Source of the DNA: Alphaproteobacteria bacterium
Lineage (GTDB): Bacteria > Pseudomonadota > Alphaproteobacteria > JAAXGF01
DNA length: 24,417 nt
Reading direction: 5' to 3'
Assembly: GCA_036447835.1 (NCBI GenBank)
Contig: JAZFVR010000209.1
Span: forward strand, 1 to 24,417
Shown: piece by piece, positions 1 through 24,378 of the stretch
Layout of the letters: every line of letters begins with the position of its first letter
How positions within the stretch are numbered: the stretch's first letter is position 1
The notes under the pieces: model-generated
The model's database searches: none
Seen by the model: the letters and a program-made list of their open reading frames with translations, nothing else
What the model was told of the DNA's origin: nothing
Translations under genes and position numbers: made by a program

Positions 1-233
1 GTCACCCCGGCGTTGGTCACCGCGGTCACGATCTCGTTGAGATTGGCCTGGTTGGCGACCGCCTGCATGCTGACCTGCTCGCCCTTGCACCCGACTTCCA
101 CGGCGCCCTGCGCGGCCTGGGCGACGAGATCGGCGAAGCTGGTGCCGGTCTGGTCGACCGTCGGTGCGGTCCCGCCCGCTTGCGACTTGGCGGCGGCGTA
201 GGCGGCGATCGCTTGAGAAAAGTTCACGGCCAT
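1..233 (-). CDS. fliE: Flagellar hook-basal body protein FliE (3' end runs off the window)
   Basis: Not in the ORF track. Manual translation from ATG at 233: MAVNFSQAIAAYAAAKSQ...SFADLVAQAAQGAVEVGCKGEQVSMQAVANQANLNEIVTAVTNAGVT. GGGAG RBS upstream; lies downstream of the flgC remnant as in flgBC-fliE operons. Confidence 0.85.
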   Translation of the reverse strand, partial: MAVNFSQAIAAYAAAKSQAGGTAPTVDQTGTSFADLVAQAAQGAVEVGCKGEQVSMQAVANQANLNEIVTAVTNAGV

Positions 234-288
234 TGCTTGCTCCCTCGGCTCGATCTGTGCTCTTGCCTACCTGACGGGGTTCGTTCGC

Positions 289-510
289 TCAGCGTGCGAG
301 GAGGTCGACCGTGCGCTGCACGATGCTCCTCGAGGCCTCGATGACGCTGAGATCGGCCTCGTAGCTGCACAACGTCTCGCGCATGTCGCTCATCTCGATC
401 AGCGGATTGACGTTGGGCAGCAGAATGTAGCCGTCGGCGTCGGCCGCCGGATGACTGAGGTCGAAGCGCTTGGTCGGCATCGAAAAGAGCTGGAAGTCTT
501 CGAGTTTCAT
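289..510 (-). pseudogene. flgC: In-frame flgB'::'flgC fusion remnant (73 aa)
   Basis: MKLEDFQLFSMPTKR resembles the alphaproteobacterial FlgB N-terminus. It continues directly into the FlgC C-terminal half FDLSHPAADADGYILLPNVNPLIEMSDMRETLCSYEADLSVIEASRSIVQRTVDLL. GAGGGG RBS before ATG 510. Confidence 0.85.
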
Positions 511-527
511 CGCCCCTCGCGGTCGTC

Positions 528-545
528 TGGCGTCTCGAGACGCCA
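528..545. repeat. Perfect 18-bp palindrome in the flgB leader
   Basis: TGGCGTCTCGAGACGCCA is its own reverse complement. Confidence 0.8.
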
Positions 546-576
546 AATCGGCTGAGCGAATGGTCGCGCAGCGCCC

Positions 577-680: not shown

Positions 681-905
681 ATGTTGTACCTGACGAGGAA
701 GATCGGCGAGTCGGTCATCATCAACAATAACATCGAGCTCACCGTGGTCGAGGTGCGCGGCAAGTCGGCCAAGCTGGGTTTCACCTTCCCCTCCGACGCC
801 ACGGTTCTGCGCAAGGAGCTCTACGAGCGCATCCGCGAGGAGAACATCGCCGCCGCCGGTACCGACGGCGAGGTGGGCGGGCCGCCGCCGCCCGACGGGG
901 ACTAG
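681..905 (+). CDS. csrA: Carbon storage regulator CsrA (74 aa)
   Basis: MLYLTRKIGESVIINNNIELTVVEVRGKSAKLGFTFPSDATVLRKELYERIREEN fits the CsrA pattern (MLxLTRKxGE, VxRxE). Confidence 0.92.
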   Translation: MLYLTRKIGESVIINNNIELTVVEVRGKSAKLGFTFPSDATVLRKELYERIREENIAAAGTDGEVGGPPPPDGD

Positions 906-918
906 GCTCAATCCCCCC

Positions 919-933
919 TTAAATCTTTATTAA
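919..933. promoter_or_regulatory. CtrA box upstream of the fliO-fliP operon
   Basis: TTAA-atcttta-TTAA. Confidence 0.8.
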
Positions 934-1002
934 GCATAAGCTTGCCATAGTCGCTCGACCGCTGGGCGTGGGTGCCCGCGGGTCAACGAGTGGAGCACAG
1001 CG

Positions 1003-1089
1003 ATGACCGAAAGCCGCGACGCGCGCGGCCACACGCCGGTCGCCGTCGCCGAGTTCCCCGACTGGCAAGCGGACGGGGGCGCGGCATGA
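1003..1089 (+). pseudogene. 28-aa remnant, probably of a small FlhB-C-terminal-like (EscU/YscU-type) gene
   Basis: GGAG RBS at 992-995, then MTESRDARGHTPVAVA-EFPDWQADGGAA*. VAVA resembles the opening AVAL motif of these proteins; the stop overlaps the next ATG (ATGA). Confidence 0.5.
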
Positions 1090-1409
1090 GCGCGGCATCG
1101 ATCAAGGCGCGCCTCGCCGAGGCGAGCACCCAGGCCACGGTCGCGCGCCAGGCGCTCGCCCGAGGTCGCGCGTTCGACCTCGGCGGGCTCACCGAGATGG
1201 TGGAAGGCGCCTGCCGGGACCTCGCCGACCTCGAAGGACCCGACGCCAAACCGCTGCACAAACAGTCGCTGGCGCCTTCCGACGAGATCAATGGCCTCGC
1301 CACGCTGCTGACCCGCGAGCACGCGGCGTTGAAGCAGGCGCTGGGCGACCTCGGCGCACGCGAGCGCGCCCAGTCGGCGTACGCCAAGACGGCGCGCGAC
1401 GATCGCTAG
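1086..1409 (+). CDS. Helical hypothetical protein upstream of fliO (107 aa)
   Basis: MSAASIKARLAEAS...AQSAYAKTARDDR; ATG 1086 coupled to the upstream stop; coding-like codon usage. Confidence 0.7.
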   Translation: MSAASIKARLAEASTQATVARQALARGRAFDLGGLTEMVEGACRDLADLEGPDAKPLHKQSLAPSDEINGLATLLTREHAALKQALGDLGARERAQSAYAKTARDDR

Positions 1410-2520: not shown

Positions 2521-5500
2521 TCAGTTGATCGCGCTCAGGGAGCCGTTGCGCGCGCGTGCGCGGTAGCCGGCCATGAACGCCTCGAAGATGTCGACCTCGG
2601 CGACCGCGGCGGGCAGCTCGCGCACCGGAACGCGCTTGCGGTCGACCTCGGAGGTGATCATCGCGAACGCGCCCTCGTTGGCGTCGCCCTTCATCTTGGC
2701 GGCGTAGCGCTCGCGCGCGCGGGCGAGGCCCTTGACGTCATCGGCGAGCGAGAGCGCCACGACGAGCCTGAGGACGTGCTGGCTGGCGAAGAAACCGAGC
2801 GGGGGATCGAGCGGCGTCTGCTCGAGGATGCGCCAGGTCGCCGCCGCCGCCCTGGCCCACTTGCCCGCGCGCCAGAAGATGTCGGCGCGCAGAAGCTCGG
2901 CCTCGCGGCTGCGATCGCTGCGGATCAGCGCAATCGCGTCGTCGTGACGATCGAGCTCGGCCAAAGCCCGCGCCTCGAGCTGGCGGCGCTGGCCGGCGAG
3001 ATCGCGGGTGACACCCATCATCTCGCTCGCCGCCAGCGCCTCGAGCGCGCGCTCCGGCTGTTGATTCATCAGCAGGATGACCGCGAGCCGGGTGCCCACC
3101 CGCGACTTTTCGATCCCCTCGAGCCGGTAGGTGAGCTGGTGCTCGAGCACGTCGGCCGCCTGGTCGAGCAGATCGACGGCGACGAGCCTGTCGGCGAGCG
3201 CCTGCATGACCTCGTCGCCGCCCTTGCCGATCGGGGTCAGCTCGCGGAACTCGTAGAACAGCGTAAGCACCTCGCGCGCCGGCACGTCCTCGAGCCTGCC
3301 CTCGAGGAACATGCCGGTGAACAGCTCGCTCATGCGCTCGGTGACCGCGGCCGTCCGGAAGTGGTTGGCGAAGTAGGTCACCGACCGTTTCATCGCCTCG
3401 AACCCGCGGATGAACGCCTTGTCGGCAACGTAGAGCTCCGCCAGCTCGAGCAGCAGTCGCAGCTCGAGATCGTCGCCGCGCCACGCGAAACGCAGGCTCT
3501 CGAGCGACTCGATCGCTTCCGCGCGCGTCGTTTCACCGGTCTCGAGCATCAGCAGCGCGCGTTCCAGGCTGCTGCCCGCGCGCGCCAGCCGGTCGCTGCT
3601 GTTTACCGTCTTGTCCCACAGCTCCCGCGCCGCGTCGGTGTTGTCGACGGCACGCAGCGCCCGCCCGCGAATGTAGTTTGCCCGGTCGATGACGACGGGA
3701 TCCTCGACCGAGGCGAGAATGGCGTCGAGGTAGGCGTTGGCCGCCGTCATGTTGGTCGCCTCGACCGCGGCCTCGGCGGCGATGAGGCCGATCTGGCTGC
3801 GCAGCGGATGCGGCAGTTCGAGCCACAGGACGTCGGCGCGCACGAAATGGACCGTCGCCGCCTCCTTGTCGCCCAGCCGGCTGGCGAGCACGCCGCGCCA
3901 CAGCGCGATGTCGTCGTAGGCGTCGAGCGAAGGGTGATTGAGATCGGCAATGGCGCCTTCGTAACGGTTGTGCATGAGCTGCGAGATGCCGCGCACCGCG
4001 CGCAGTGTCGGGTCCTCGGCAACGGTCAGGTCTTCCTCCATCAACAGCTCGAATCGGCCCAGCACCTCTGCGAAATAACCATTGGCGAACAGGAACAACA
4101 GCTGGTCGATACGCGCCTGCCGGCGCTCTTCCACCGGCGCCACCACCACGGCGCGTTGTAGCTCTTGGCTCTTGTCGTAGAACGCGGCCACGTCGCCGCC
4201 GCGCCAGGCGGCGAAGTCCAGCAGCCTGGTCGCCGGGCCGGTGCGGCGCGTGATGCGGGCCCGTTGTTTGGGGGCCGGCCGCTCCACCGGGCCAGCGGCA
4301 TACGCCAGCTCGACGCCGGCAAGGCTCGTGCGTACGTCGAAACCCCGCGACTTGGGGAGCGCCACGATGCCTTGCGCCGTCGCCAGCAGCTCGAAACCCT
4401 CGAAGCTCCGGCCCTCGACGACCCCGGTGGCCGACGCCACCACCGGCACGACCACGAAGGTCGTGAGATCGTCCGGATCGCTCACCTGGACGCTGTCGGC
4501 GACGTCGGCGATCTTCAGTTGAACGCCGATGCCGCGGGTTTCGTCGTCGAAGGGTCGAACCTCGATCGCTTTCGGAGCTTCGGGCTTGGCGGTGAACTGC
4601 GCCAGCCACAGGTTGCCGCGCCGGCTCAACGCGACCCCGTAGCCGGCGCGCAGCCGGAAACGAAACACGGTAGCGCTCGAATGGGAAACCTGCGCCACCG
4701 ACTGGTAGGCCGGCGATTCATGCGCCAGCGCGTCGGTGAGATCGACCGAGAAGCGCTCCGGAAACACCAGCCAGACATTCCCGTCGTGCACGAAGGCGGC
4801 GCTCGCCAGCCGCTTGCCAGCGTTGAAGCTGACCAGGCTGCGGTCGCCGGTCGACTCGACGGCAACCCTCATCGGCGCCGGACCCAGCGAGATCTCGGCC
4901 GCGGTCGTCCCCAGCGATCGGCCGGCGACGGTCTGCGGCGCGTCTTCGGCGGGTAGCGACAACGGCACCAGCGCGATGGTCCCGCCGTGCGCCGCCATAC
5001 GACTCACCGTGCTCGCGGCGGGCCGGGATTCGGTCATGGCCGCTGGGCGGTATTCGGCGGAGGCGTCGGCCGCGGCCGGGGTTGCGGGTAGGGTCGCCGC
5101 CGACGGCGCCATCTCTCGGGCGACCTCTTGCGCGTCCCCCGGCAGCGGGTGCGGAGGTTCGCCTTCCGCGCCCGTCTCCGGCGCCGGATCGGGCGGCAGC
5201 GGAGTCGCATCGACCGTCGCCTTCACAGACGGTGCGAGGCCATCGTCGGGCGGTGTCGAAGCCTCTCGCGGGCGGGCGGCGGGCGCCTCGGGCCGGTCGC
5301 CTGCCGCGCCTTGGCTACGGGGGGCGAACACGTCGAGCACAACGCTGGTGCCCGAGCGGAAGTGCCGCAGGCGGTTCGGAGCGGCGACTGCGAGAGTCAC
5401 TATGGTGCGTTTGCCGGAGGTCTCGATTTCCCCGGCACCAATGTTCCGTGGCGGGCCGGCATTGAGCGCCGCCAGGTCGATGGTCGCGGCGCGGTCGAAC

Positions 5501-6018
5501 CGGATGATCGCCCTGCCGTCCTCGTGCGTGACCTTGTAATCCACCGGCATCCGCCAGTCGAAGACGATACGGCTGTAGCCGGGATGGTCGCCCACCCGGA
5601 CGTCGACGCGCGGCAGGGCCGGGCTCGGCGCTGCGGCGCCCGAGGCGGCCGCGTCGCCCACCAGATCGACCACCACCGACTTCTCGTAGACGAAGGTGCG
5701 CAACGAGAAGTCGCCGGTGAGCGAGAGCGCGACGGTACGGCCGTCGGCGTCGACGCGGGCGTCGCTCACATAGGCGCGAAGGCTGCGGCGCACCCCGTCC
5801 AACGATACGCTTAGCGGCCGGGCGAAGGTGACGCGGAGGACGCGGCCGTCGATTCTGGCGTCGTAGGTGGCCGGCGCGGGCCAGTCGAAGACGATGCGGG
5901 CGAAGCCGTCGTGTGCGGCCGCCCGGGTCGTCACGGTCTCGGCCGCCCGTGCCGCGGCGCCGGCAAGCACCGACACCGCGAGCGCGACGACGGCGAGTGC
6001 ACGGGCGCTACGTGCCAT
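2521..6018 (-). CDS. Large exported flagellar-motor-associated protein (about 1165 aa): signal peptide, two AMIN-like repeats, low-complexity linker, TPR-like C-terminus
   Basis: ATG 6018 gives MARSARALAVVALAVSVLAGAAARA (signal-like). Repeats HDGFARIVFDW and HPGYSRIVFDW. C-terminal LADRLVAVDLLDQAADVLEHQ region. Frame uninterrupted. Confidence 0.8.
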   Translation of the reverse strand: MARSARALAVVALAVSVLAGAAARAAETVTTRAAAHDGFARIVFDWPAPATYDARIDGRVLRVTFARPLSVSLDGVRRSLRAYVSDARVDADGRTVALSLTGDFSLRTFVYEKSVVVDLVGDAAASGAAAPSPALPRVDVRVGDHPGYSRIVFDWRMPVDYKVTHEDGRAIIRFDRAATIDLAALNAGPPRNIGAGEIETSGKRTIVTLAVAAPNRLRHFRSGTSVVLDVFAPRSQGAAGDRPEAPAARPREASTPPDDGLAPSVKATVDATPLPPDPAPETGAEGEPPHPLPGDAQEVAREMAPSAATLPATPAAADASAEYRPAAMTESRPAASTVSRMAAHGGTIALVPLSLPAEDAPQTVAGRSLGTTAAEISLGPAPMRVAVESTGDRSLVSFNAGKRLASAAFVHDGNVWLVFPERFSVDLTDALAHESPAYQSVAQVSHSSATVFRFRLRAGYGVALSRRGNLWLAQFTAKPEAPKAIEVRPFDDETRGIGVQLKIADVADSVQVSDPDDLTTFVVVPVVASATGVVEGRSFEGFELLATAQGIVALPKSRGFDVRTSLAGVELAYAAGPVERPAPKQRARITRRTGPATRLLDFAAWRGGDVAAFYDKSQELQRAVVVAPVEERRQARIDQLLFLFANGYFAEVLGRFELLMEEDLTVAEDPTLRAVRGISQLMHNRYEGAIADLNHPSLDAYDDIALWRGVLASRLGDKEAATVHFVRADVLWLELPHPLRSQIGLIAAEAAVEATNMTAANAYLDAILASVEDPVVIDRANYIRGRALRAVDNTDAARELWDKTVNSSDRLARAGSSLERALLMLETGETTRAEAIESLESLRFAWRGDDLELRLLLELAELYVADKAFIRGFEAMKRSVTYFANHFRTAAVTERMSELFTGMFLEGRLEDVPAREVLTLFYEFRELTPIGKGGDEVMQALADRLVAVDLLDQAADVLEHQLTYRLEGIEKSRVGTRLAVILLMNQQPERALEALAASEMMGVTRDLAGQRRQLEARALAELDRHDDAIALIRSDRSREAELLRADIFWRAGKWARAAAATWRILEQTPLDPPLGFFASQHVLRLVVALSLADDVKGLARARERYAAKMKGDANEGAFAMITSEVDRKRVPVRELPAAVAEVDIFEAFMAGYRARARNGSLSAIN

Positions 6019-6733
6019 CCCCGCCTCCGTCGGCGAAGGCCTCGCGAATGACGATGTCGACGCGGCGGGCGAGCCGATAACGCTGCTCGTCCACGAAATC
6101 GGCGGGAATCTCGTCGAAGCGCGCATCGGCGAACCCGAGGGCGATGATCTCCCGAGTATAGCCGACGGTGCGCAGACCGTCGGCGACCGCCACCGCCCGG
6201 TCGAGCGAAAGCTCCCAGTTCGAGCGCGTACCGCGGCCTCGAATCGGGTTTGGGTCGGTATGGCCGTTGACGTCGACTCGATTGGCGATATGGCGCAAGG
6301 TTTCGCCCAGCTCGTTGAGTGCCTGACGCGCCTCAGGGGTCAACTCGGCGCTGTTCGAGGCGAACAGAAGGTCGCCCGGCAGGGTGATGACGAGCCGGTC
6401 GTCGATACGGCGCAACAGCGCCTGGCCGAGTACCGGGCGACCACGCGTCTTCTGGGCGATCACCGCATGCAGATAATCGAGGTCGGTGGCGTCGGCGCTG
6501 GCGATCGTCTTCGCGGTGCGGTCGGTCAGGCCGGGAACGGATTCCCAGCCGCGGTCGGGATTGAGCCGCTGCGACAGAGCGCTGATCATGATTTCCCAGT
6601 TCGCCTCCTTGACCGACGACATGGCAAACAACATGACGAAGAAGGTGAGCAGCAGCGAGATCAGGTCGGCGAAGGTGATCAACCATCGCGTTTCGATCGG
6701 GCGCTCGGGGCTGCGCTCTGGAGGGAACGGCAT
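6008..6733 (-). CDS. motB: Stator protein MotB (OmpA-like peptidoglycan-binding domain)
   Basis: WLITFADLISLLLTFFVML has the essential Asp; GHTD, NWELSLDRA and RRVDIVI motifs. Confidence 0.93.
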   Translation of the reverse strand: MPFPPERSPERPIETRWLITFADLISLLLTFFVMLFAMSSVKEANWEIMISALSQRLNPDRGWESVPGLTDRTAKTIASADATDLDYLHAVIAQKTRGRPVLGQALLRRIDDRLVITLPGDLLFASNSAELTPEARQALNELGETLRHIANRVDVNGHTDPNPIRGRGTRSNWELSLDRAVAVADGLRTVGYTREIIALGFADARFDEIPADFVDEQRYRLARRVDIVIREAFADGGGDGT

Positions 6734-6736: not shown

Positions 6737-7417
6737 CTACTCCCCGCCGGCTGCCGACAGGAGCGCGTCTTCGCCCGCCGCCCGGGTGAAGAACAGCAGA
6801 CGCAGCATCGCCGGATCGCCCTCTTCGATGCCGACCGATATATGGTTCGCGGACACGTTGCGCGCGTCCAGCTGCCGCGCGAAGGCGCCGGCGCGCTCGA
6901 CCGCGATCGCCCGCTCGGGTGTCGGGTTGCGCGCCTCGGCGACCGGCAACGCGATCAGCAGCTCGGCCTCGAAATAATGACCGGGAATCTCCCGGTTGAG
7001 GGCCGCGGCGAGCCGGTCGAAAAAGGGTGCCTGCTCGGCCAGCGGCGTGGTCCGGCCGGGCGCATAGATCGACTCGACGGGAATCTCCACCTGCATCTGC
7101 CCGAAGGGCTGATAGGGCGAGACCTTGACGAAAGGAAACTCCGCCTCGAAGAGCGCGCGCACCGTATTCTCGAAATCAGCGATGGCCGAGAAGACGCCAC
7201 TCCCGGGGGCGACGTCGAAAGGCCCCGTGGCCACCAGGGCGGGCTCGGAGAAGGTCGCGCCGAGACTGCCGAGCACCGCATTGGAGCGCGCTTCCTGGCG
7301 GCTGGAGATGGCGTTCATCAGGATGAAGAAAGCGAGGATGATGAGATAGAGGGCGAGGAAGATCGGCGTCGTGGAATCGCCCGGCGCCTTGGGCTTCGCT
7401 GGGAGTCCCCCGATCAT
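6737..7417 (-). CDS. MotB-like paralog lacking the catalytic TM Asp
   Basis: TM IFLALYLIILAFFILMNAIS aligns with the MotB TM with Ala at the Asp position; degenerate OmpA-like C-terminus. Confidence 0.7.
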   Translation of the reverse strand: MIGGLPAKPKAPGDSTTPIFLALYLIILAFFILMNAISSRQEARSNAVLGSLGATFSEPALVATGPFDVAPGSGVFSAIADFENTVRALFEAEFPFVKVSPYQPFGQMQVEIPVESIYAPGRTTPLAEQAPFFDRLAAALNREIPGHYFEAELLIALPVAEARNPTPERAIAVERAGAFARQLDARNVSANHISVGIEEGDPAMLRLLFFTRAAGEDALLSAAGGE

Positions 7418-7426
7418 GGCCGGGGC

Positions 7427-8196: not shown

Positions 8197-8254
8197 GACC
8201 TGCGCTCCGTCCCTCGATCGGATCGGAATGGACCCTGCGTACAGAGCCGATAGG

Positions 8255-8283
8255 TTAAGGTCGATTGGTTAAACGACGGTTAC
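8255..8283. promoter_or_regulatory. CtrA-like sites upstream of the cheY operon
   Basis: TTAA-acgacgg-TTAC at 8269-8283, plus a GGTTAA half-site whose TTAA is at 8255-8258. Confidence 0.6.
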
Positions 8284-8305
8284 GGCTGGCGCGCTGGGCG
8301 TCCGT

Positions 8306-8920: not shown

Positions 8921-8923
8921 CGC

Positions 8924-10608: not shown

Positions 10609-10618
10609 GGCCCTTCGT

Positions 10619-11140: not shown

Positions 11141-11192
11141 TTGCCACCTTTGGAATTCGGCACGCGGCAGCCGTGGGGCCGCATCAACCGGG

Positions 11193-11210
11193 TTGGAAAC
11201 ATTATTGCGA
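11193..11210 (+). promoter_or_regulatory. sigma54-like -24/-12 promoter, divergent from fliL, with no recognisable downstream gene
   Basis: TTGGAAACATTATTGCGA (GG-N10-GC, TTGC at -12); AAGAGG and ATG 11235 follow. Confidence 0.5.
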
Positions 11211-11223
11211 ATCAGGCGTTAAC
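11208..11223 (-). promoter_or_regulatory. Imperfect CtrA site upstream of fliL containing a GANTC site
   Basis: Minus strand GTTAA-cgcctga-TTCG; GAATC at 11209-11213. Confidence 0.45.
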
Positions 11224-11348
11224 AAGAGGTTGCGATGGGCGCCGCGACCCCCGTTTACGGCGCATTCGGGCGGCTTCGCCATGCGCGCGATGCTCGATGG
11301 ACGCGATGCCCGGAGCCGGGCGGGGTCGCGCTCGCGGCCGGCCCAGTC

Positions 11349-11777
11349 TCATGCCTCCTGGCGTGCCCAGACCAGGTTGACGAACGCCTCGGCGTTGTCG
11401 GGATCGCGCGTGACCGCCCGGCGATAGCTCTCCACCGCCTCGTCGGCGCGCCCGAGACGCCGAAGCACGGTCCCGCGGTTGGAAAATTAGGCGGGATTGC
11501 TCCCGTCGATGGCGATCGCCCGGTCGATGAGGTCGAGCGCGTCGTCGTCACGTCCCGTCTGGTGAACGACGACGCCGAGCTGATTGAGGACGTCGGCCTG
11601 CCGCGGCTCCGCCGCCAGCACCTCGCGGTAGAGCGCCTCGGCCTCGGCGAGCGCGCCCGCCTGGTGCAGCCGCACCGCGCTGACCAGCTTCTCGGCGATC
11701 GAAGGGGCCGGGGCGCGGGCCGCCGGCGCCGGCTTGCGCGTCTCTGGTTAGCGGCGGCGCCGCGCTTGATGGTTCAT
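11349..11777 (-). pseudogene. TPR-repeat protein pseudogene with two in-frame stops
   Basis: One frame reads MNHQARRRR*PETRK...AVRLHQAGALAEAEALYREVLAAEP...AIAIDGSNPA*FSNRGTVLRRLGRADEAVESYRRAVTRDPDNAEAFVNLVWARQEA*. The TAAs are at 11748-11750 and 11487-11489. Confidence 0.85.
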
Positions 11778-11922
11778 TGGCGTGATCGCCGTTGCGGCGC
11801 CTGGTTGCCCATTGTTCGCCTGCGATCATCGAGTGCGCATGGTGGGCCGGCGGCGAACGCCCGTGTCGATGCGCCGGCCGCGGCGGCGCCTGCCCGCGCC
11901 GGTCACGGCCCACCCGCAAGGG

Positions 11923-13191: not shown

Positions 13192-13526
13192 ATGGATCGT
13201 ATGCTGCTTTCGAGTGCCGCCCTGAAACGTCGAGGCCCGCGCCGCCGGCGGTGGCTCGCCGCAGGCCTTGGCGCCGCGCTCGTGCTGATGCTCGCCGCAG
13301 GCACGGCGAGCGCCATGTCGCGGATCGAGGACATTGCCGCCTTCGAGGGCGTGCGCGACAACCGGCTCGTCGGCTACGGTCTCGTCGTCGGCCTCAACGG
13401 CACCGCGACACGCTCAACAACGCGCCGTTCACGCAGCAGAGCCTGATCGGCATGCTCGAACGCCTCGGCATCAACACCCGAGGCGTCACCCTGAGTACCG
13501 CGAACATCGCCGCGGTGATGGTCACC
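13192..13526 (+). pseudogene. flgI: 5' fragment of P-ring gene flgI with a 1-nt deletion frameshift
   Basis: Signal peptide + SRIEDIAAFEGVRDNRLVGYGLVVGLNGT, a missing base at about 13405, then DTLNNAPFTQQSLIGMLERLGINTRGVTLSTANIAAVMVT in the shifted frame. Confidence 0.92.
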
Positions 13527-13622
13527 GACATGATCATCACCCAGCGAGCGTTCTCCGCGAGCTCGCGCGTGATCACCACGGTCGACGACATGCTCGAAGA
13601 ACTGATCCGCATCCGGCGGTGA
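13524..13622 (+). pseudogene. flgE: 3' end of hook gene flgE fused to flgI'
   Basis: TDMIITQRAFSASSRVITTVDDMLEELIRIRR* is a hook/rod-type C-terminal D0 helix. flgE lies next to sciP-fliF in Caulobacter. Confidence 0.8.
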
Positions 13623-13801: not shown

Positions 13802-14095
13802 ATGAACGAAGGTACGCTGTTCAATCGCTCAACGATCGGGGGGCGCCTTGACGTACCGGTCACCCTCGACGACCTGCCGCCGCCCGACACCAAACGTTGG
13901 GTGGTGCGGCGCAAGGCGGCCGTCGTGGCGGCGGTGCGCACGGGTCTGATCACCCTCGAGGAAGCGTGCCGTCGTTACACCCTATCGGTTGAAGAATTCC
14001 TTTCGTGGGAACGCGCCATGGAGAAGCACGGGCTGCGTGGCCTCCGTGTAACGCGCCTTCAGGAATACCGCGCACCATCGCGAGATGTGAGATAG
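13802..14095 (+). CDS. sciP: CtrA inhibitor SciP (DUF1153)
   Basis: LDDLPPPDTKRWVVRRKAAVVAAVRTGLITLEEACRRYTLSVEEFLSW...GLRVTRLQEYR. Start chosen from the GGAG at 13789-13792. Confidence 0.93.
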   Translation: MNEGTLFNRSTIGGRLDVPVTLDDLPPPDTKRWVVRRKAAVVAAVRTGLITLEEACRRYTLSVEEFLSWERAMEKHGLRGLRVTRLQEYRAPSRDVR

Positions 14096-14140
14096 TCGCC
14101 ACCGGCCTCGACGGGCTGTGATCGATCGCCCCTGTTTCCG

Positions 14141-15933: not shown

Positions 15934-15948
15934 CGGGGGCGCGGCGTC

Positions 15949-16979: not shown

Positions 16980-17723
16980 ATGGCTGAACCCGTCAAGTTC
17001 AATTTCGAGACCGTTTTCGAACTGAAAGACGGCGGTGGCAGCGGCCGCGGCGTGGCGTTTTCGCAAAGCTACACCCGCCAAGAACTCAACGCCGCGTGCG
17101 AAGAGGCGCGCCGGGCCGGGTTTGCCGAAGGCGTGGCGCAGGAACAGGCGAGAATCGAGCGCCGGCAAGCCGACGCGCTCGATGCGATCGGCGAGCGGAT
17201 GAGCGAAATCGCGCGCGTCCAGGCCGCCGAGTTCGAACGCACCGTCAAGAGCGCGACGGCGCTGTCTCTGGCCGTCGCGCGCAAGGTCGCGCCGGCGCTC
17301 ATGCAGCGCCAGCCTCTGGCCGAGATCGAGACGATGATCGCCGACCACCTGGCGCAGCTCATCGACGAACCAAATGTGGTCATGCGCGTTCCCGACGCCC
17401 TGCTCGACGCGATCAAGAACCGGATCGACGAGATCGCCGAGGACTGCGGTTACGCCGGCCGCATCGTCCTGCTCGCCGATTCGTCCCTCGGCGAAAGCGG
17501 CTGCCACATAGAGTGGGCCGATGGCGGTGCGGAGCGCAACACCGACGCCGTTTGGCGCGAGATCGAGACCGCGATCGAACGGCTCCTGCACGCGCCGGTC
17601 GGAGACTCCCCGGAGGACGACGGCGTAACGGCACCTGATGCAGGCAACCCGATACAGGAACCGGTCGAATCTGAGGCGTCTCACGACGTCGACGATTCCG
17701 AGACCGACCAGTCCAACGAGTAG
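16980..17723 (+). CDS. fliH: Flagellar assembly protein FliH (FlbE-like)
   Basis: From ATG 16980: MAEPVKFNFETVF...ARRAGFAEG...LGESGCHIEWADGGAER. Confidence 0.85.
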   Translation: MAEPVKFNFETVFELKDGGGSGRGVAFSQSYTRQELNAACEEARRAGFAEGVAQEQARIERRQADALDAIGERMSEIARVQAAEFERTVKSATALSLAVARKVAPALMQRQPLAEIETMIADHLAQLIDEPNVVMRVPDALLDAIKNRIDEIAEDCGYAGRIVLLADSSLGESGCHIEWADGGAERNTDAVWREIETAIERLLHAPVGDSPEDDGVTAPDAGNPIQEPVESEASHDVDDSETDQSNE

Positions 17724-17732: not shown

Positions 17733-18098
17733 ATGTCGGACACCAAGGGCGAGCTTGACCTCGCCGACCTCGACACCGACGGCCAGGAAGCGCAGCTGGA
17801 AGACACTCCCGCCGAGGGTGATCCCGCGCTGGCGCAGGCCGCGGGGCCAAAGTCGGGCAGCGACCTCGAGGCGGTGTTCGACGTGCCGGTCCAGGTCTCG
17901 GCCGTTCTCGGCAAGGCCACGCTCCAGGTCTCGCAGCTACTGAAGCTCGGACGCGGCGCGGTGGTCGAGCTCGACCGCAAGGTGGGCGAGGCGATCGACA
18001 TCTACGTCAACGACCGTCTCGTCGCCCGCGGCGAGATCGTGGTCGTCGAGGATCGCCTGGGCGTGACCATGACGGAAATCATCAAGTCCGATCGCTGA
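17733..18098 (+). CDS. fliN: Switch protein FliN
   Basis: VFDVPVQVSAVLGK...LDRKVGEAIDIYVNDRLVARGEIVVV. Confidence 0.96.
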   Translation: MSDTKGELDLADLDTDGQEAQLEDTPAEGDPALAQAAGPKSGSDLEAVFDVPVQVSAVLGKATLQVSQLLKLGRGAVVELDRKVGEAIDIYVNDRLVARGEIVVVEDRLGVTMTEIIKSDR

Positions 18099-18127: not shown

Positions 18128-18895
18128 ATGGACTTGGCAACACTTCTCGGGCTCTTTGCGGGGTTCGGCCTCATCGGCACCGCCATCGTGCTCGGCGGCA
18201 CGCCGCTCGCGTTCGTCGACGCGCCCGCGATGCTCATCGTCTTCGGCGGCACCTTCGCCGTGACGATCGTTTCGTTCTCGCTCGACGACGTGCTGCGCGC
18301 CAACAGCGCCGTGTTCAAGGCGTTGTTCCAGCCGGTGCTCGACACCAGCATCGCCGCCACCCAGGTGCTCGAGCTGGCGGAATTGGCGCGTCACAAGGGC
18401 GCGCTGGCGCTCGAGAACGTGCAGTCCAAAACGGTCAACCTGCCGTTCCTGAACGAGGGCCTGTCGCTCGTCGTCGACGGCTCGAGCGGCGATGAAGTCG
18501 AAAGCATCATGACGCGCAAGGTCCACGCCATGGCGAGCCGCCACGCGAGGAGCGTCGAGGTGATACGCAAGGCGGCCGACGTGTCGCCGGCGATGGGCCT
18601 GATCGGCACGCTGGTCGGCCTGGTACAAATGCTCGGCAATCTCGAAGACCCGTCGACGATCGGGCCGAGCATGGCGGTGGCGCTGCTCACCACGTTTTAC
18701 GGGGCGGTGCTGTCGAACATGGTGTTTTCGCCCCTGGCGGCCAAACTCGAGCGCAAATCGGGCGATGAGGTTCTGCTCAACACCATCTACCTCACCGGAC
18801 TGGCATCGATCACCCGGCACGAGAACCCGCGCCGGCTCGAGATGCTGCTCAACACGCTGCTGCCCCCCACCGAACGGATTGAGTACTTCGAATAG
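18128..18895 (+). CDS. motA: Stator protein MotA/PomA family
   Basis: MDLATLLGL, SPAMGLIGTLVGLVQML and MAVALLTTFYG motifs. Confidence 0.92.
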   Translation: MDLATLLGLFAGFGLIGTAIVLGGTPLAFVDAPAMLIVFGGTFAVTIVSFSLDDVLRANSAVFKALFQPVLDTSIAATQVLELAELARHKGALALENVQSKTVNLPFLNEGLSLVVDGSSGDEVESIMTRKVHAMASRHARSVEVIRKAADVSPAMGLIGTLVGLVQMLGNLEDPSTIGPSMAVALLTTFYGAVLSNMVFSPLAAKLERKSGDEVLLNTIYLTGLASITRHENPRRLEMLLNTLLPPTERIEYFE

Positions 18896-18931: not shown

Positions 18932-20296
18932 ATGCGTTTACTCATTGTTGGCTCACTCGGCGGCGAAATCGGCACCGCCAGCAAGATCGCCATGGCACGA
19001 GGGGCCAAGGTTGGCCATGCCGGCGACATCGACACCGCGCTCGAAGCGCTGCGATCCGGCCGGGGGGCCGAGCTGGTGATGGTCGACGTCAAGCTCGACA
19101 TCGCCCGCTTCATCGGCTGTCTGACCTCGGAGCGCATCAGCGTGCCGGTCGTCGCTTGCGGCGTCGACCCCGACGCCGACGCCGCGGTACGGGCGATCAA
19201 GGCGGGCGCTCGCGAGTTCATTCCGCTGCCGCCCCAGGCCGAGCTCATCGCGGCGGTGCTCGAGGCGGTGGCGGCAGCGAGCCACACCATCATCTACCGC
19301 GATCCCGCCACGGCCAAGGTTCTGAACCTCGCCGAGCGGGTCGCCCCCTCCGACGCCAGCATCCTGATCACCGGGGAATTGGGAACCGGCAAGGAGCTGC
19401 TCGCCCGTTTCGTACATCGCCACAGCCGCCGCTCGGGAGAATCCTTCGTCTCGGTGAACTGCGCCGCGATCCCTGAGAACCTGCTCGAATCCGAGTTGTT
19501 CGGGCACGAGAAGGGCGCCTTCACCGGCGCCGTCGCCCGCCGCATTGGCAAGTTCGAGGAAGCCAACGGCGGCACGCTCCTGCTCGACGAGATCAGCGAG
19601 ATGGACCCGCGCCTCCAGGCCAAGCTCCTGCGTTCGCTCCAGGAGCGCGAGATCGACCGCGTCGGCAGCTCGGCGCCGATCAAGATCGACATCCGCCTCG
19701 TCGCGACGAGCAACCGCGACCTTGAGGCCGCAGTGGCGGAGGGCAGCTTCCGCGAGGACCTCCTGTTCCGCCTCAATGTCGTCAACCTGCACATGCCGCC
19801 GCTGCGCGAACGCACCGGCGACATCCCGGTGCTGTGCAGCCACTTCATCGAGAAGTACTCGGAGGCCAATGGGATTGCGGTGCGGCCGTTGGCGCCCGCG
19901 GCGCACGACATGCTGGTCGGCCACGGCTGGCGCGGCAACGTGCGCGAACTCGAGAACACCATCCATCGCTCCGTGCTGCTGGCCAAGGGCGAGCAAATCG
20001 GCCCCGACGCGATCATGCTGTCGAGCGGTTCGCAGCGCAGTGAAACGCTGGCCCCTGGCAACGGCGACAGCGCTGCGGCGGTCACCGGCGCCACCAGCCG
20101 CCTGGTCGGGCGCACCGTCGCCGATGTCGAGCGCGACCTCATCCTCGAGACGCTCACCCACTGCCTCGGCAACCGCACCCATGCCGCCAACATCCTCGGG
20201 ATCTCGATCCGCACCCTGCGTAACAAGCTCAAGCTGTACGCCGGCGAGGGCAACAAGGTGCCGCAACCCGGCGAAGCGCCGCAAGCCGCACTCTAG
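18932..20296 (+). CDS. flbD: sigma54-dependent flagellar activator FlbD (REC-AAA+-HTH)
   Basis: GAFTGA, LLLDEISE and GNVRELEN motifs; HTH GNRTHAANILGISIRTLRNKL; position after fliF-G-H-N. Confidence 0.93.
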   Translation: MRLLIVGSLGGEIGTASKIAMARGAKVGHAGDIDTALEALRSGRGAELVMVDVKLDIARFIGCLTSERISVPVVACGVDPDADAAVRAIKAGAREFIPLPPQAELIAAVLEAVAAASHTIIYRDPATAKVLNLAERVAPSDASILITGELGTGKELLARFVHRHSRRSGESFVSVNCAAIPENLLESELFGHEKGAFTGAVARRIGKFEEANGGTLLLDEISEMDPRLQAKLLRSLQEREIDRVGSSAPIKIDIRLVATSNRDLEAAVAEGSFREDLLFRLNVVNLHMPPLRERTGDIPVLCSHFIEKYSEANGIAVRPLAPAAHDMLVGHGWRGNVRELENTIHRSVLLAKGEQIGPDAIMLSSGSQRSETLAPGNGDSAAAVTGATSRLVGRTVADVERDLILETLTHCLGNRTHAANILGISIRTLRNKLKLYAGEGNKVPQPGEAPQAAL

Positions 20297-20469
20297 GAGC
20301 CTGTCCGAGTAATGGTCATGTGCTGCATCGATCCAGGATGCGCGAGTGCCAGGAGCGGAGGCACCGGCGATGCCGGAGCATCGTCAAGCCTTCGCGACGC
20401 CGCAATCGCGCCTCCCGGGGCCTCGAAAACGCGGTGCAGCCCGTGACCATTCCCCCGACAGGCTCCTAG
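20293..20469. mobile_element. MITE-like element (177 bp including flanking CTAG) between flbD and flhA
   Basis: 38-bp imperfect inverted ends (32/38 identical; 20293-20330 versus 20432-20469), CTAG at both ends, no transposase. Confidence 0.75.
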
Positions 20470-20490
20470 GCCGTAACAGGATCGGATCCG

Positions 20491-22590
20491 TTGGCCGAGA
20501 ACGAAACCGCATCGGTGCCGTCGACAGACGTGCTCGCCAGCATCGGCGAAAGCCTCCGCCGGGGCGACGTTGCGCTCGCGCTCGGCGTCATATTCATCCT
20601 CGTCGTTCTCATCCTGCCGATGCCGAGATGGCTTCTCGACATCATGCTCGGCGTCTCGATCAGCTTCTCCGGCCTGATCCTGCTGACCTCGCTGTTCATC
20701 ACCCGGCCGCTCGACTTCAGCTCGTTTCCGACGGTGCTGCTCATCGCCACCATGCTGCGGTTGTCGCTCAACTTGGCCTCGACGCGGCTGATCCTCGCCC
20801 ACGGCCACGAGGGAACGGGTGCCGCCGGCAAGGTCATCGAGGCCTTCGGCAACTTCGTCATGGGCGGCAACTTCGTCATCGGAATCATCGTCTTCGGTAT
20901 CCTGGTGATCGTGAACTTCATCGTCATCACCAAGGGTTCGGGCCGCATCGCCGAGGTCTCGGCACGGTTCAGCCTCGACGCCATGCCGGGCAAGCAGATG
21001 GCGATCGACGCCGACCTGTCGGCGGGCCTGATCGACGAGACCGAGGCGCGCGAGCGGCGCAAGAGGCTGGAGGACGAGAGCAACTTCTTCGGCGCCATGG
21101 ATGGCGCGGCGAAGTTCGTGCGCGGCGACGCCATCGCCGGCATCCTCATCACCTTCATCAACATCATCGGCGGCATGATCATCGGCATGGTCCAGCAGGA
21201 CCTGACGATGTCCCAGGCCGCGGCCTCGTACACGCTGCTCACCGTCGGTGACGGCCTGGTGACGCAGATACCGGCGCTCGTCGTTTCCACCGCCGCCGGT
21301 CTCCTGGTTTCGAAGGCCGGCATCGACGGCACCACCGACAAGGCGGTGTTCGGCCAGCTCGGCCGGCATCCGCGGGCGTTCGGCCTGTCGAGCGCGATGC
21401 TGGTGGCGCTCGCGCTGTTGCCGGGCATACCGATGATACCGTTCCTGCTGCTCGCCGCAGGCTCGGGCGCGCTTGCCTGGCGGCTCACGCTGCGCCCGAC
21501 CGAGGAGAGCCCCGAAGCCCTGGTCGACGCGGCGGCGGCACCGGCGCCGCCGGCGGAGGAGCCGATATCGACGGCGCTGGCCATCGACCAGATCCGCCTC
21601 GAGCTCGGCTACGCGCTGTTGACGCTGATCAACGACCAGCAGGGCCATCGCCTCAGCGAGCAGATCAAGACGCTGCGCCGGCAGATCGCTTCCGATATGG
21701 GCTTCGTCACGCCCTCGGTGCGGATCCAGGACGACATGCAGCTTGCGGCCAACGGATACGTGATCCGCGTCAAGGACATCGAGGCCGGCAGCGGCGAGGT
21801 CAAGCCCGGCATGCTCATGGTGATGGATCCGCGCGGCGAGAAGATCACGATCGCCGGCGAGGAGACGACCGAGCCCACCTTCGGCCTGCCCGCCATGTGG
21901 GTGCCCGAAGCGAACCGCGAAGAGGCGGCGTTCCGCGGCTACACCGTGGTCGATGCGCCGACGGTCATCACCACGCATCTGACCGAGGTGATCAAGGAGC
22001 ACATGTCCGAGCTGTTGTCGTACAGCGAGACCCAGAAGCTGCTCGACGAGCTCGACCAGGATCACCAGAAGCTCGTCGCCGACCTCGTGCCGTCGAAGAT
22101 CGCGGTCAGCGGCATTCAGCGCGTATTGCAGAACCTGCTTTCCGAGCGCGTGTCGATCCGCGACCTGCCCACCGTTCTCGAGGGCATTTCCGAGGCCGTG
22201 GGCTTCACCCAGAACATCACCCTGGTCAGCGAACACGTGCGCAGCCGTCTCGCTCGCCAGCTGTGCAGCGCCAACACCGGCGCCGACGGCGTTATCCAGC
22301 TGGTAACGCTGTCGCCCGACTGGGAACAGGCCTTCGCCGACGCGGTCGTCGGTACCGGCGACGAGCGCCAGCTGTCGATGGCACCGAGCAAGCTGCAGGA
22401 GTTCATCACCGTCGTGCGCCAGACCTTCGAGCGCCACGCCATGATGGGCGAGCTGCCGGTGCTTCTGTCGAGCCCCGGCATCCGGCCGTTCGTGCGTTCC
22501 ATCGTCGAGCGCTTCCGGCCGACGACGGTGGTGATGTCGCAGAACGAGATCCACCCGAAGGCCAAGATTCGCACCGTGGGACAGATCTGA
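20491..22590 (+). CDS. flhA: Export gate protein FlhA
   Basis: SFPTVLLIATMLRLSLN, RFSLDAMPGKQMAIDADL and FFGAMDGAAKFVRGDAIAG motifs; TTG start. Confidence 0.97.
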   Translation: MAENETASVPSTDVLASIGESLRRGDVALALGVIFILVVLILPMPRWLLDIMLGVSISFSGLILLTSLFITRPLDFSSFPTVLLIATMLRLSLNLASTRLILAHGHEGTGAAGKVIEAFGNFVMGGNFVIGIIVFGILVIVNFIVITKGSGRIAEVSARFSLDAMPGKQMAIDADLSAGLIDETEARERRKRLEDESNFFGAMDGAAKFVRGDAIAGILITFINIIGGMIIGMVQQDLTMSQAAASYTLLTVGDGLVTQIPALVVSTAAGLLVSKAGIDGTTDKAVFGQLGRHPRAFGLSSAMLVALALLPGIPMIPFLLLAAGSGALAWRLTLRPTEESPEALVDAAAAPAPPAEEPISTALAIDQIRLELGYALLTLINDQQGHRLSEQIKTLRRQIASDMGFVTPSVRIQDDMQLAANGYVIRVKDIEAGSGEVKPGMLMVMDPRGEKITIAGEETTEPTFGLPAMWVPEANREEAAFRGYTVVDAPTVITTHLTEVIKEHMSELLSYSETQKLLDELDQDHQKLVADLVPSKIAVSGIQRVLQNLLSERVSIRDLPTVLEGISEAVGFTQNITLVSEHVRSRLARQLCSANTGADGVIQLVTLSPDWEQAFADAVVGTGDERQLSMAPSKLQEFITVVRQTFERHAMMGELPVLLSSPGIRPFVRSIVERFRPTTVVMSQNEIHPKAKIRTVGQI

Positions 22591-22612
22591 TGGTGCGCCG
22601 GAGCATGCCGAA

Positions 22613-23584
22613 ATGCGCCTGAAATCGTTCACTGCGGCGAGCATGAGCGAGGCCATGCGACAGATTCGCGTCGAGTTCGGCGAGGACGCGGTGATCGTTT
22701 CGAGCCAGCGCATCATGGGTCACCAGGGCGTGCGGGTTACCGCCGCGCTCGACGACTCCGGCGAAATCCCCGTCGCCAGCGTCGAGCCGCTGGCGCCGCG
22801 CGAAATGGTGGAAGCGATCGACCGCGCGCTCAGCGACCACGGTACGCCGCGCTGGCTGGTCGAGCAGCTCACCGGCGCCGTGTGCGGTGACGAGGACGAT
22901 CTCTTGACCCTGCTCGCTCACGTCCTCGCGGAGAGTTTCCGCTTCGAGCCGTTGGCAGAGGACGGCGCGGCGCGGCCGATCGCTCTCGTGGGTCCGCCCG
23001 GCGTCGGCAAGACGGTCGCCACCGCCAAGATCGCCACGCGCTGGGTTCTCGCCAAGCGACCGGTCAGGGTGATCTCGACCGACAGCTTCCGCGCCGGCGG
23101 CGTCGACCAGCTCGCCGCCCTCACCAAGATTCTGGGAATCAGGCTGTTCACCGCAGCCTCGCCGCGCGAGCTACAGGAAGTGGCGACGGCGGGCGAACCC
23201 GGCGAACTGGTTCTCGTCGACACCGCCAACGCGAACCCCTTCAGCAAGGCCGAGCTGGTGCGCCTCGCCGAGCTCACCGACAGCATCGGCGCCGAACCGC
23301 TGCTGATCCTGGCTGCGGGTGGCGACGCCGAAGAGGCGGCCGAGATCGGCGAGGTTTACAGTGCGCTCGGCGCGACCCGCATGATCGTGACCCGGCTCGA
23401 CGCGGCGCGCCGCCTCGGCGGCATTCTCGCGGCGGCGAACCACGGCCGGCTGGGATTCTGCGAGGTGAGCCTCAGCCCCCACGTTTCACGCAGTCTTCAC
23501 CCCATCGACCCGCAAGCGCTGGCGCGTTTGCTTCTCAGCCACCAGGCCGAACGCGAGCAGGCCGAAGAGCCCGACGAGGCATAG
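22613..23584 (+). CDS. flhF: SRP-family GTPase FlhF
   Basis: MRLKSFTAASMSEAMRQIRVEFGEDAVIVS N-terminus; GPPGVGKT, DSFRAGG and TRLD motifs; G3 reads DTAN. Confidence 0.9.
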   Translation: MRLKSFTAASMSEAMRQIRVEFGEDAVIVSSQRIMGHQGVRVTAALDDSGEIPVASVEPLAPREMVEAIDRALSDHGTPRWLVEQLTGAVCGDEDDLLTLLAHVLAESFRFEPLAEDGAARPIALVGPPGVGKTVATAKIATRWVLAKRPVRVISTDSFRAGGVDQLAALTKILGIRLFTAASPRELQEVATAGEPGELVLVDTANANPFSKAELVRLAELTDSIGAEPLLILAAGGDAEEAAEIGEVYSALGATRMIVTRLDAARRLGGILAAANHGRLGFCEVSLSPHVSRSLHPIDPQALARLLLSHQAEREQAEEPDEA

Positions 23585-23586
23585 CA

Positions 23587-24378
23587 ATGGCAACGAGCAG
23601 CTCTGCACGACAACAGCCCGACACGCGCCCGACCGGCGAAAACATCATCACGATCGCGTCGGGGAAAGGCGGTGTCGGCAAGACCTGGCTGGCGATCACG
23701 CTGGCCCATGCCCTGGCGCGATCGGGTCGCCGGGCGCTGCTGTTCGACGGCGACATCGGTCTCGCCAACGTCGACATCCAGCTCGGTCTGGCGCCCGAAC
23801 ACGACCTCGGCAGCGTCATCGCCGGCCGGCTCAGCCTGCACAGCGCGGTCACCACCTTCGCCGACGGCGGGTTCGACATCATCGCCGGGCGTTCGGGATG
23901 GGGGAGCCTCACGGCGCTGCACCCCTCGCGGCTGACCACCCTGCGCGACGACCTCATCGCCATGGCCGGCGGCTACGACGACGTGGTGGTCGACCTCGGC
24001 GCCGGCCTCGAACAGAGCGTGCGGCTGCTGACCGTGCCCGCCGGCCGCTGCCTCATCGTCACCACCGACGAGCCCACGGCGCTCACCGACGCGTACGCCT
24101 TCATGAAGATCATCCGCGCCGAACGGCCGGGCATCGACCTGCGCGTGGTGGTCAACATGGCGGCCACCCCGAAGGATGGCGAGAACACGTACAACACCCT
24201 GTGCAGGGTGTGCGAGAACTTCCTCAAGTTCACGCCGCCGCTCGCCGGGGTGGTTTGCCGCGATTCCCACGTCAAGGATGCGATCCGCAACCAGACCGCC
24301 ATGCTCACCCGGCACCCGGGGAGCAGGGCGTCGAGCGACATCGAGATGCTGGCCCGGGCCTTGGCGAGAGCGAGGTAG
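23587..24378 (+). CDS. flhG: MinD-like ATPase FlhG/FleN
   Basis: IASGKGGVGKT, DGDIGLANVDIQLG, DLGAG and EPTALTDAYAFMK motifs. Confidence 0.93.
   Translation: MATSSSARQQPDTRPTGENIITIASGKGGVGKTWLAITLAHALARSGRRALLFDGDIGLANVDIQLGLAPEHDLGSVIAGRLSLHSAVTTFADGGFDIIAGRSGWGSLTALHPSRLTTLRDDLIAMAGGYDDVVVDLGAGLEQSVRLLTVPAGRCLIVTTDEPTALTDAYAFMKIIRAERPGIDLRVVVNMAATPKDGENTYNTLCRVCENFLKFTPPLAGVVCRDSHVKDAIRNQTAMLTRHPGSRASSDIEMLARALARAR

Follow-up and report, generated by a model that had tools for sequence, protein, structure and literature searches.

Loss of the flagellar rod, rings, hook and filament, and retention of rotor, export gate and stator genes under selection, in an alphaproteobacterial lineage from sediment

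The flagellar locus and its missing parts

The stretch of DNA analysed here (the window) is the entire contig JAZFVR010000209.1 (24,417 nt; C209), the longest of assembly GCA_036447835.1 (G000), an alphaproteobacterial metagenome-assembled genome (MAG) of 468 contigs and 2.42 Mb (N50 ~6 kb, 69% G+C, 88.98% completeness, 0.39% contamination). It holds a flagellar gene cluster, interleaved with the cell-cycle regulators sciP, dksA and csrA, from which the rod, ring, hook and filament genes are gone and in which the genes for the flagellar base are kept, an observation that our searches confirm. Coding frames were set by the G+C content of third codon positions (GC3), Pfam and NCBIfam scans, and synteny with four motile relatives (G003, G005, G009 and G011), which belong to the same family but to other genera and whose FlhA is ~79-80% identical to that of G000; the scans and the synteny confirm the gene map of the window. 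L-numbers denote contigs from other assemblies or metagenomes, 16 of which form, together with G000, the deletion-bearing clade described below; C-numbers denote contigs of one genome.

What is left of the flagellum? Genes for the MS/C ring are fliF (14305-15933), fliG (15949-16965) and fliN (17733-18098) on the plus strand and fliM (9400-10608; Pfam FliM, FliMN_C) on the minus strand; the Pfam matches of these four span the full models, and their lengths equal those of the relatives. The plus strand also carries fliH (16980-17723), motA (18128-18895) and the regulator gene flbD (18932-20296; Pfam Sigma54_activat/HTH_8). Like fliF, fliG and fliN, these are recognised by Pfam and NCBIfam, and all six are full-length compared with the relatives and free of stops and frameshifts in every clade contig. 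Export-gate genes in the window are fliO (1437-1742, plus; Pfam FliO), fliP (1739-2479, plus; Pfam FliP) and flhA (20491-22590, plus; Pfam FHIPEP, 868 bits), the last followed by flhF (22613-23584, plus; Pfam SRP54) and flhG (23587-24378, plus; Pfam ParA/CbiA). The minus strand contributes motB (6008-6733; Pfam MotB_plug and OmpA), cheY (7810-8196; Response_reg), fliL (10619-11140; Pfam FliL) and fliX (12479-13105; Pfam FliX). Elsewhere in the assembly, fliQ, fliR and flhB are intact on contig C463, and fliI and fliJ on C448, which completes the export apparatus (flhA, flhB, fliO/P/Q/R and fliH/I/J). FliI matches TIGR03498 at 634.8 bits, above the equivalog cut-off of 587, and FlhB still has its NPTH site, MotB the Asp of the channel and CheY its phospho-acceptor residues. 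rpoN is present on C217. The genome further retains two genes for methyl-accepting chemotaxis proteins (MCPs), two CheA-sized genes and CheW genes. Its chemosensory genes form two groups (C152:1597-7025 and C339:2564-4089), compared with one in each of the four relatives.

All retained genes of the window have open frames of normal length when compared with the relatives, as the earlier note on this DNA had read them, and the core proteins are 60-83% identical to their flagellar orthologues in the other genera. The note's second claim, that the rod, ring and hook genes are destroyed or missing, is likewise borne out by the Pfam and NCBIfam scans, the synteny and a search of the whole assembly. 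The N-terminal domain of rod and hook proteins (PF00460, Flg_bb_rod) has no match in the G000 assembly, compared with six to seven matches in each of the four relatives, and Flagellin_N has none in the assembly either. Flg_bbr_C matches only two stubs in the window, and the FlgI model only two window fragments, which cover model positions 1-70. In each of the four relatives, by comparison, the two rod/hook domains match 5-7 times, flgI is full-length and flagellin-domain genes are present; flagellin proper is found in three of the four. A tblastn search with every ORF of the relatives' clusters found no counterpart in G000 for any axial or outer gene, including FlgK, FlgL, FlgD and a FliK-like protein. 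No intact axial gene is thus found elsewhere in this 89%-complete assembly. The rod, the hook, junction and flagellin genes, and the P and L rings (flgI, flgH, flgA), on which a functional flagellum depends, are lacking in G000. In sum, this marine-sediment lineage has lost the rod, the P and L rings with FlgA, the hook, hook cap, ruler, junction proteins and flagellin, and a tetratricopeptide repeat (TPR) glycosyltransferase; among the secreted axial parts, only fliE is left.

This fliE lies at the left end of the window, which covers its first 77 codons (3..233, minus strand; 56-62% identity to the FliE of the relatives) and ends within the gene; the last 72 bp are unassembled in the MAG. 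A full FliE of 101 residues is present in clade contigs L118, L135 and L138. In G000, L118, L136, L137, L139 and L140, a miniature inverted-repeat transposable element (MITE)-like repeat separates fliE from fliQ and begins right behind the fliE stop; it is absent from this position in L135 and L138. The contig breaks at the left end because this copy directly follows the stop, and we reject a disruption of fliE in G000 in favour of an assembly break. The repeat measures ~180-280 bp and has internal inverted repeats; BLAST finds 45 matches to it, spread over more than 20 contigs of the genome. Its copies include G000:C463:4768-5045 and L118:1-233, and BLAST self-matches place another in the window between flbD and flhA (20294..20471).

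Several accessory genes accompany the base. Adjoining motB on one side is a gene for a 1165-residue protein (2521..6018, minus) with weak Pfam AMIN-like and TPR matches, which is syntenic in the relatives (46-52% identity) and is a candidate stator or periplasmic scaffold. On its other side motB adjoins a paralogue (6737-7417, minus) that lacks the channel Asp. In the N-terminal sequences inspected, the paralogue reads IFLALYLIILAFF and MotB ITFADLISLLLTFF at this site; the Asp-less form is kept in the relatives as well. It is followed by a short CheZ-like gene (7414-7782, minus; PF04344 on clade gene calls) whose product has 122 residues in all clade contigs, compared with 213-219 in other genera; only the C-terminal half aligns well. 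A MotE-like gene with an MgtE_N domain (8306-8920) and a DUF6468 gene (8924-9403), both minus and assigned by Pfam, lie between cheY and fliM; an apparent truncation of motE in L111 was traced to a scaffold gap of 100 N and rejected. Regulatory and flanking genes are csrA (681..905, plus; Pfam CsrA, E 1e-19), a conserved 107-aa ORF (1086..1409, plus) that stands upstream of fliO in all relatives, and dksA (11923-12372, minus; Pfam DksA). The gene next to fliF (13802..14095, plus), previously labelled DUF1153, is sciP, which encodes an inhibitor of CtrA: it matches the NCBIfam equivalog NF051866 at 128.6 bits, against a cut-off of 100.

Deletion junctions, an intact sister and the age of the loss

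Apart from three sites, the gene order of G003, G005, G009 and G011 equals that of the window. At these sites the relatives carry extra genes: full flgB and flgC beside csrA; flgF-flgG-flgA-flgH between fliL and dksA; and, from fliX to sciP/fliF, flgI, a rod-binding gene, flgK, flgL, flagellin, a FliK-sized gene, flgD and flgE. The deletions in the window map exactly onto these flgBC, flgFGAH and flgI...flgE blocks.

At the first site, an in-frame flgB'-'flgC fusion encodes a stub of 85 residues (289..546, minus; Pfam Flg_bbr_C, blastp matches to FlgB and FlgC of the relatives), in which FlgB residues ~18-39 are joined to FlgC residues 77-136, the C-terminal 60; 6.6% of its sites segregate in the clade. 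Close by lies the remnant of a small gene resembling the C-terminal part of flhB (906..1085, plus), which has lost 234 bp after position 1046. This gene is intact (106 aa, TIGR00789) in L118 and in the relatives, and the 234 bp are gone in the rest of the clade. The second site, between fliL and dksA, is a scar of 782 bp (11141..11922), where 4946 bp are missing after 11311 compared with contig L115. It contains a TPR-GT41 (FlmG-like) pseudogene (11309-11778, minus) with three in-frame stops and a further loss of 306 bp after 11407, equal to three TPR units that survive only in L112; its stops and a frameshift vary among strains. The fliL-flgF intergenic region (11141-11311) survives up to the deletion point. 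At the third site, a flgI'-'flgE remnant (13192..13622, plus) consists of the signal peptide and ~110 codons of flgI, followed by the final 32 flgE codons. The frame of its flgI part is shifted by the loss of 1 bp after 13404; in L111 and L112 the fusion is not frameshifted and forms a clean ORF of 143 codons. Judged by G009 and G005, this deletion is estimated at 13-20 kb.

Could a lineage be found in which these loci are still whole? A protein search with FliF returned matches of 100%, 93% and 80% identity. The 93% match lies on contig L107, whose DNA is 95.05% identical to the window from 13522 onward and which continues, upstream of the junction, into an intact flgE (at least its last 314 codons). 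L115, found through a FliM variant in the same metagenome as L107, matches the window at 94.8-95.5% DNA identity. It reads flgK, a 145-aa gene, a rod-binding gene, flgI (390 aa), fliX, dksA, a TPR-Glyco_transf_41 gene (694 aa), flgH, flgA, flgG, flgF, fliL and fliM. This locus identifies the TPR pseudogene of the window as the 5' end of an FlmG-like glycosyltransferase gene and shows that a single deletion of 4946 bp removed the 3' part of this gene together with flgH, flgA, flgG and flgF. At the third site, the alignment of L115 (flgI side) with the window ends at 13527 and that of L107 (flgE side) begins at 13522. The two alignments overlap by 6 bp at 13522-13527, and the flgI/flgE junction therefore bears a 6-bp microhomology. 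The losses arose by a few microhomology- or repeat-mediated deletions.

The earlier note had judged the remnants to be old. The sister lineage contradicts this: at ~95% DNA identity it is still intact at these sites, so the deletions postdate a split of ~5% in nucleotides and the remnants are young. In a relative-rate test against the four other genera, which is too coarse and gives way to the data on close strains, the substitutions unique to G000 in the remnants (13 of 125 sites, compared with four for G003) show no significant excess. Nor is the deletion lineage accelerated relative to its flagellated sister: since their split, sciP, fliF, fliG, fliH, fliN and motA have acquired 30 derived amino-acid changes in the former and 29 in the latter.

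The reading frame is preserved in the flgB-flgC and flgI-flgE fusions, in the 234-bp flhB-like and the 306-bp TPR deletions, and in an independent fusion, P0001. The cases are few; one possible reason for the pattern is selection against polar effects on the retained operons downstream, fliE-fliQ-fliR-flhB and sciP-fliF onward. P0001 came from a protein search with the fused stub, which did not recover the clade. It joins, in frame and at a different junction, FlgI residues 1-~178 to the last ~38 residues of FlgE, giving a protein of 213 residues on L141, a contig of 782 bp (ENA ERZ23486246). Its host is a different organism (the FlgI part is ~69% identical); the sediment metagenome from which it comes contains the G000 clade as well. 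Deletion of the block from flgI to flgE may be recurrent.

How far have the deletions spread? The clade contigs (L109-L114, L116-L119 and L135-L140), drawn from a minimum of eight assemblies or metagenomes, share 97.95-99.5% identity with G000. All of them span at least one junction, and the junctions are always identical. Twenty sequencing runs from eight sediment and marine studies contain 0.61-0.87 of the sampled words of window positions 10600-15000. Logan contigs from four studies bridge the junctions, one piece of 8.3 kb being gapless across 8000-16299. A housekeeping region of G000 (contig C400) shows like diversity in ten strains (98.5-99.5%), and the whole species-level clade therefore appears fixed for the deletions.

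These data bear on the suspicion that the organism swims after all, its axial genes lying in the unassembled 11% of the genome or at a second locus, or the junctions being products of misassembly. A MAG of this fragmentation and completeness invites such a suspicion. Against it, the native loci carry deletions with remnants on both sides, the same junctions recur in assemblies made independently and in Logan contigs from four studies, so that misassembly finds no support, and the Pfam rod, flagellin and FlgI models match nothing else in the genome, unlike in all four relatives. We regard an artefact of this kind as extremely improbable.

Flagellar loss is recurrent in this family and takes differing routes. 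In G004, flhA (G004:C48:18125-20224) is a pseudogene with five stops, and FliF and the rod genes are kept. G001 has rod genes and lacks FlhA and FliF. G002 and G006 have no match for FlhA, the rod N-terminal domain or FliF, the three families searched. Decay therefore does not generally proceed in an order that spares the export gate. An order-level survey at a completeness of at least 90% returned this family alone (nine genomes, including G000), and a class-level survey found rod genes in 195 of 301 genomes. A search of genome contigs with FlhA returned only distant relatives, of at most 74% identity.

Selection on the retained genes after the loss

Is the remaining base merely waiting to decay, or does selection maintain it? 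Segregating changes were counted in NG86 style on all clade contigs aligned to the window and to C463. The contigs are consensus sequences, and such counts are rough in a genome with GC3 near 0.9. The 3' end of L109 (~970 bp, window 20491-21457, 5' part of flhA; synonymous diversity, pS, 0.24) was excluded as chimeric or recombinant; the rest of this contig is 99% identical to the window. Over 5971 synonymous and 17501 non-synonymous sites, the retained genes hold 260 and 285 changes, respectively, a ratio of non-synonymous to synonymous diversity (pN/pS) of 0.37 (binomial P = 4e-29 against neutrality). Nonsense codons are absent among these changes; had they arisen at the synonymous rate, 25.4 would be expected (P = 9e-12).

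Constraint differs between the parts of the module. The pN/pS is 0.23 for the export gate (flhA, fliO/P/Q/R and flhB), 0.37 for the MS/C ring (fliF/G/M/N), 0.28 for motA and motB, and 0.20 for flbD, flhF, flhG and cheY together. A housekeeping control gives 0.19-0.20 by the same method. Individually, fliO and fliP stand at ~0.16-0.17, flhA, flhF and flhG at 0.13-0.36 and the Asp-less MotB paralogue at ~0.27. Accessory genes, including fliH and the 1165-residue AMIN-like/TPR gene (0.47 on its own), reach 0.43. A last group, made up of fliE, fliL, fliX and the 107-aa ORF, yields 1.23 (13 synonymous, 47 non-synonymous changes), the 107-aa ORF alone having 4 and 15. The claim that the base is kept under selection consequently holds for the core genes, and these four look neutral; some peripheral genes appear to have been released from selection.

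Insertions and deletions tell the same core genes apart from the remnants. In the retained genes we find three 3-bp events and one 34-bp deletion, the latter in L117 (window 3521-3554), where it splits the 1165-residue gene into ORFs of 290 and 864 codons; this is the sole frame-breaking change seen in retained genes, one frameshift in 23.5 kb. All indels of 1-2 bp fall in intergenic DNA or in remnants. Two sequencing runs carry a compensated +1/-1 pair at 4998-5003. In ~1.16 kb of remnants, by comparison, seven independent disruptions have accumulated: the TPR stub has four nonsense codons and one frameshift, the flgI part its frameshift, and the flgB-flgC stub of L117 and L119 a nonsense codon (Fisher P = 7e-8 against the retained genes, calculated on six of the seven). 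Erosion is ongoing within the clade, as seen in the flhB-like gene, the three TPR units and the 1165-residue gene of L117.

Taken together, the pN/pS, the absence of nonsense codons, the contrast with the remnants and the lack of acceleration relative to the sister lead us to reject recent uniform decay for the core genes. The stops, the frameshifts and the pN/pS near 1 throughout that would mark a uniformly decaying pseudogene cluster are not what this locus displays. The ratio of non-synonymous to synonymous change, which the earlier note had proposed as a check, points the same way. We hold with high confidence that the retained core is under purifying selection. The data support the view that swimming has been lost while the MS/C ring, the export gate and the stator are kept under selection, and it is probable that the half motor serves some other end.

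Purifying selection need not mean a positive function, however. Loss may simply be in progress, with point mutations purged on the grounds that half-built membrane complexes, such as leaky gates, leaky stators or a mis-set FlbD, are harmful; the module would then vanish only by deletion of whole operons, as the axial genes did. All losses so far are indeed clean deletions and erosion continues, the overall pN/pS is twice that of housekeeping genes with four genes looking neutral, and flagella have been lost repeatedly in the family (G004, G002, G006). Yet the flhA of G004, with its five stops, argues that such export-gate alleles are not generally lethal. In addition, flhA, fliP, flbD and motA are as constrained as housekeeping genes across a clade of ~1-2% diversity sampled in eight studies, and no clade contig was seen in which a whole operon of core genes is deleted. 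We consider this explanation somewhat unlikely.

Possible uses of a shaft-less flagellar base

Which function could preserve a rotor without a shaft? The locus shares its architecture with Caulobacter crescentus: sciP, the divergence of fliX and flgI, and flbD next to the fliF operon. The retained set corresponds to Caulobacter class II (MS ring, switch, export apparatus, FlbD and FliX) plus the stator, FlhF/G and CheY; the lost set corresponds to classes III and IV plus flgBC and the flagellin glycosyltransferase. In Caulobacter, the assembled class II structure sets the activity of FlbD through FliX, and class II mutants, including those in fliX, have a division defect (PMC3096577). Late-assembly mutants (ΔflgH, or those blocked in flagellin secretion) are hyperadhesive, by a pathway that needs proton flux through MotB and the stator-bound cyclase DgcB; the inner-membrane rotor must be assembled, and ΔfliF is epistatic (PMC7885107). 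Such laboratory mutants keep the signalling of the inner-membrane rotor via MotB (PMC7885107, PMC3096577), just as the rotor genes are kept here. The state we describe differs in being natural, fixed in a wild species, made by deletion and maintained over ~1-2% divergence, in a different, uncultured order.

On this analogy, the class II module and the stator may be kept because they are wired into cell physiology beyond swimming. The assembled MS-ring/switch/export complex would set the state of FlbD, and proton-conducting stators on a shaft-less rotor would give a constitutive 'surface-like' signal, as suggested by the raised cyclic di-GMP (c-di-GMP) and the adhesion of Caulobacter late-assembly mutants. 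The rotor, stator and export complex would then serve as a hub at the cell pole, for signalling and checkpoint control, in cells that never swim and live attached to particles. For a wild lineage of this genotype, constant 'surface' signalling would be expected, which would suit life on sediment particles. We favour such a hub because it would account for the constraint on motA and motB, unlike a pure checkpoint or secretion model. As the reason for retention, we put a signalling and checkpoint hub forward tentatively, as a possibility that falls just short of what we would call probable.

Several observations weigh against this explanation. With 6 synonymous and 17 non-synonymous changes, fliX looks neutral, a poor fit with a FliX-dependent checkpoint and the main datum against the checkpoint half of the proposal; fliL and fliE look neutral too. 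The overall pN/pS of 0.37 is twice the housekeeping value of 0.19, and some relaxation is possible. Recombination with flagellated relatives could import polymorphism that has already been filtered by selection. Completeness of the genome is 89% and its fragmentation high, Caulobacter, the source of the analogies, belongs to a different order, and among the sequencing runs searched, no RNA run holding this DNA was found.

Alternatively, the base may have been repurposed for secretion, a rod-less type III export gate opening into the periplasm and being kept for a non-flagellar substrate. It would thereby be a present-day counterpart of the initial step proposed for the route from flagellum to injectisome; an intermediate of just this kind is put forward by Abby and Rocha (PMC3459982). 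The export gate and its ATPase complex are complete and among the most constrained parts, FliI, FliH and FliJ are intact, and FlhB keeps its NPTH site. However, every gene for a known early or late substrate is deleted except fliE, which evolves as if neutral, and no candidate substrate was identified. The equal constraint on motA/motB, cheY and flhF/flhG is left unexplained, and Pfam scans of the window reveal no secretin or needle gene at the locus. Domains of injectisome parts (the secretin SctC, the needle SctF and the SctD ring) are absent from all ORFs of the window, the genome beyond it not having been searched for linked secretins. A parallel is the secretin-less type III secretion system (T3SS) of Myxococcales, a proposed flagellum-injectisome intermediate argued to translocate proteins (Abby and Rocha 2012, PMC3459982). 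It resembles the present locus in having a core without FlgBCDEK, FlgH, outer channel and filament. It also lacks FliE, FliG and MotAB and diverged anciently, whereas FliG, FliM, FliN and MotAB are kept here and the DNA is ~95% identical to that of an intact sister. On balance, we think repurposing for secretion unlikely.

Reduced flagellar sets are already known, in Buchnera, in the orphan genes of Chlamydia, in the T3SS of Myxococcales and as the 'partial sets' of a recent survey. Buchnera aphidicola keeps the rod, rings, hook and export system, presumably for a use other than motility, and has lost the filament, stator and chemotaxis genes. As in Buchnera, part of the flagellar apparatus is kept without motility. 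The partition is the opposite one: here the rod, rings and hook are lost, and motA/motB, cheY and the MCP, CheA and CheW genes are kept. Unlike the endosymbiont, moreover, this is a GC-rich (69%) lineage found in sediment metagenomes, and hence presumably free-living. The survey in question (ISME J 2025, PMC12199754) lists genomes with rotor proteins but no filament ('partial protein sets'), raises a possible alternative function of the rotor and asks what half a motor is for; it states that its data do not allow the losses to be ordered, and it could not test selection. By contrast, exact junctions, an intact sister and population variation are available for the present locus, so that losses can be ordered and selection can be tested. 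New, then, are a partition that reverses that of Buchnera, its occurrence in a GC-rich sediment lineage, an event dated against an intact sister, and a measure of selection after the loss from wild variation.

With this half motor, several ideas become open to direct tests. The flagellar base may serve purposes besides swimming (surface and c-di-GMP signalling, a cell-cycle checkpoint, export), class II genes may be protected by pleiotropy, and the loss of its axial parts may leave a flagellum with a T3SS core that still works, a step put forward for the origin of the injectisome. One may also ask whether, in a free-living bacterium, the rotor, stator and export gate without a shaft have become a dedicated organelle, be it a constitutive c-di-GMP and proton-flux signalling rotor that commits cells to attached life or a secretion machine directed at the periplasm. 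We consider this conceivable, at somewhat less than even confidence. If it is true, the first step from flagellum to injectisome would have been re-run within the last few per cent of divergence, with the intact sister available for comparison.

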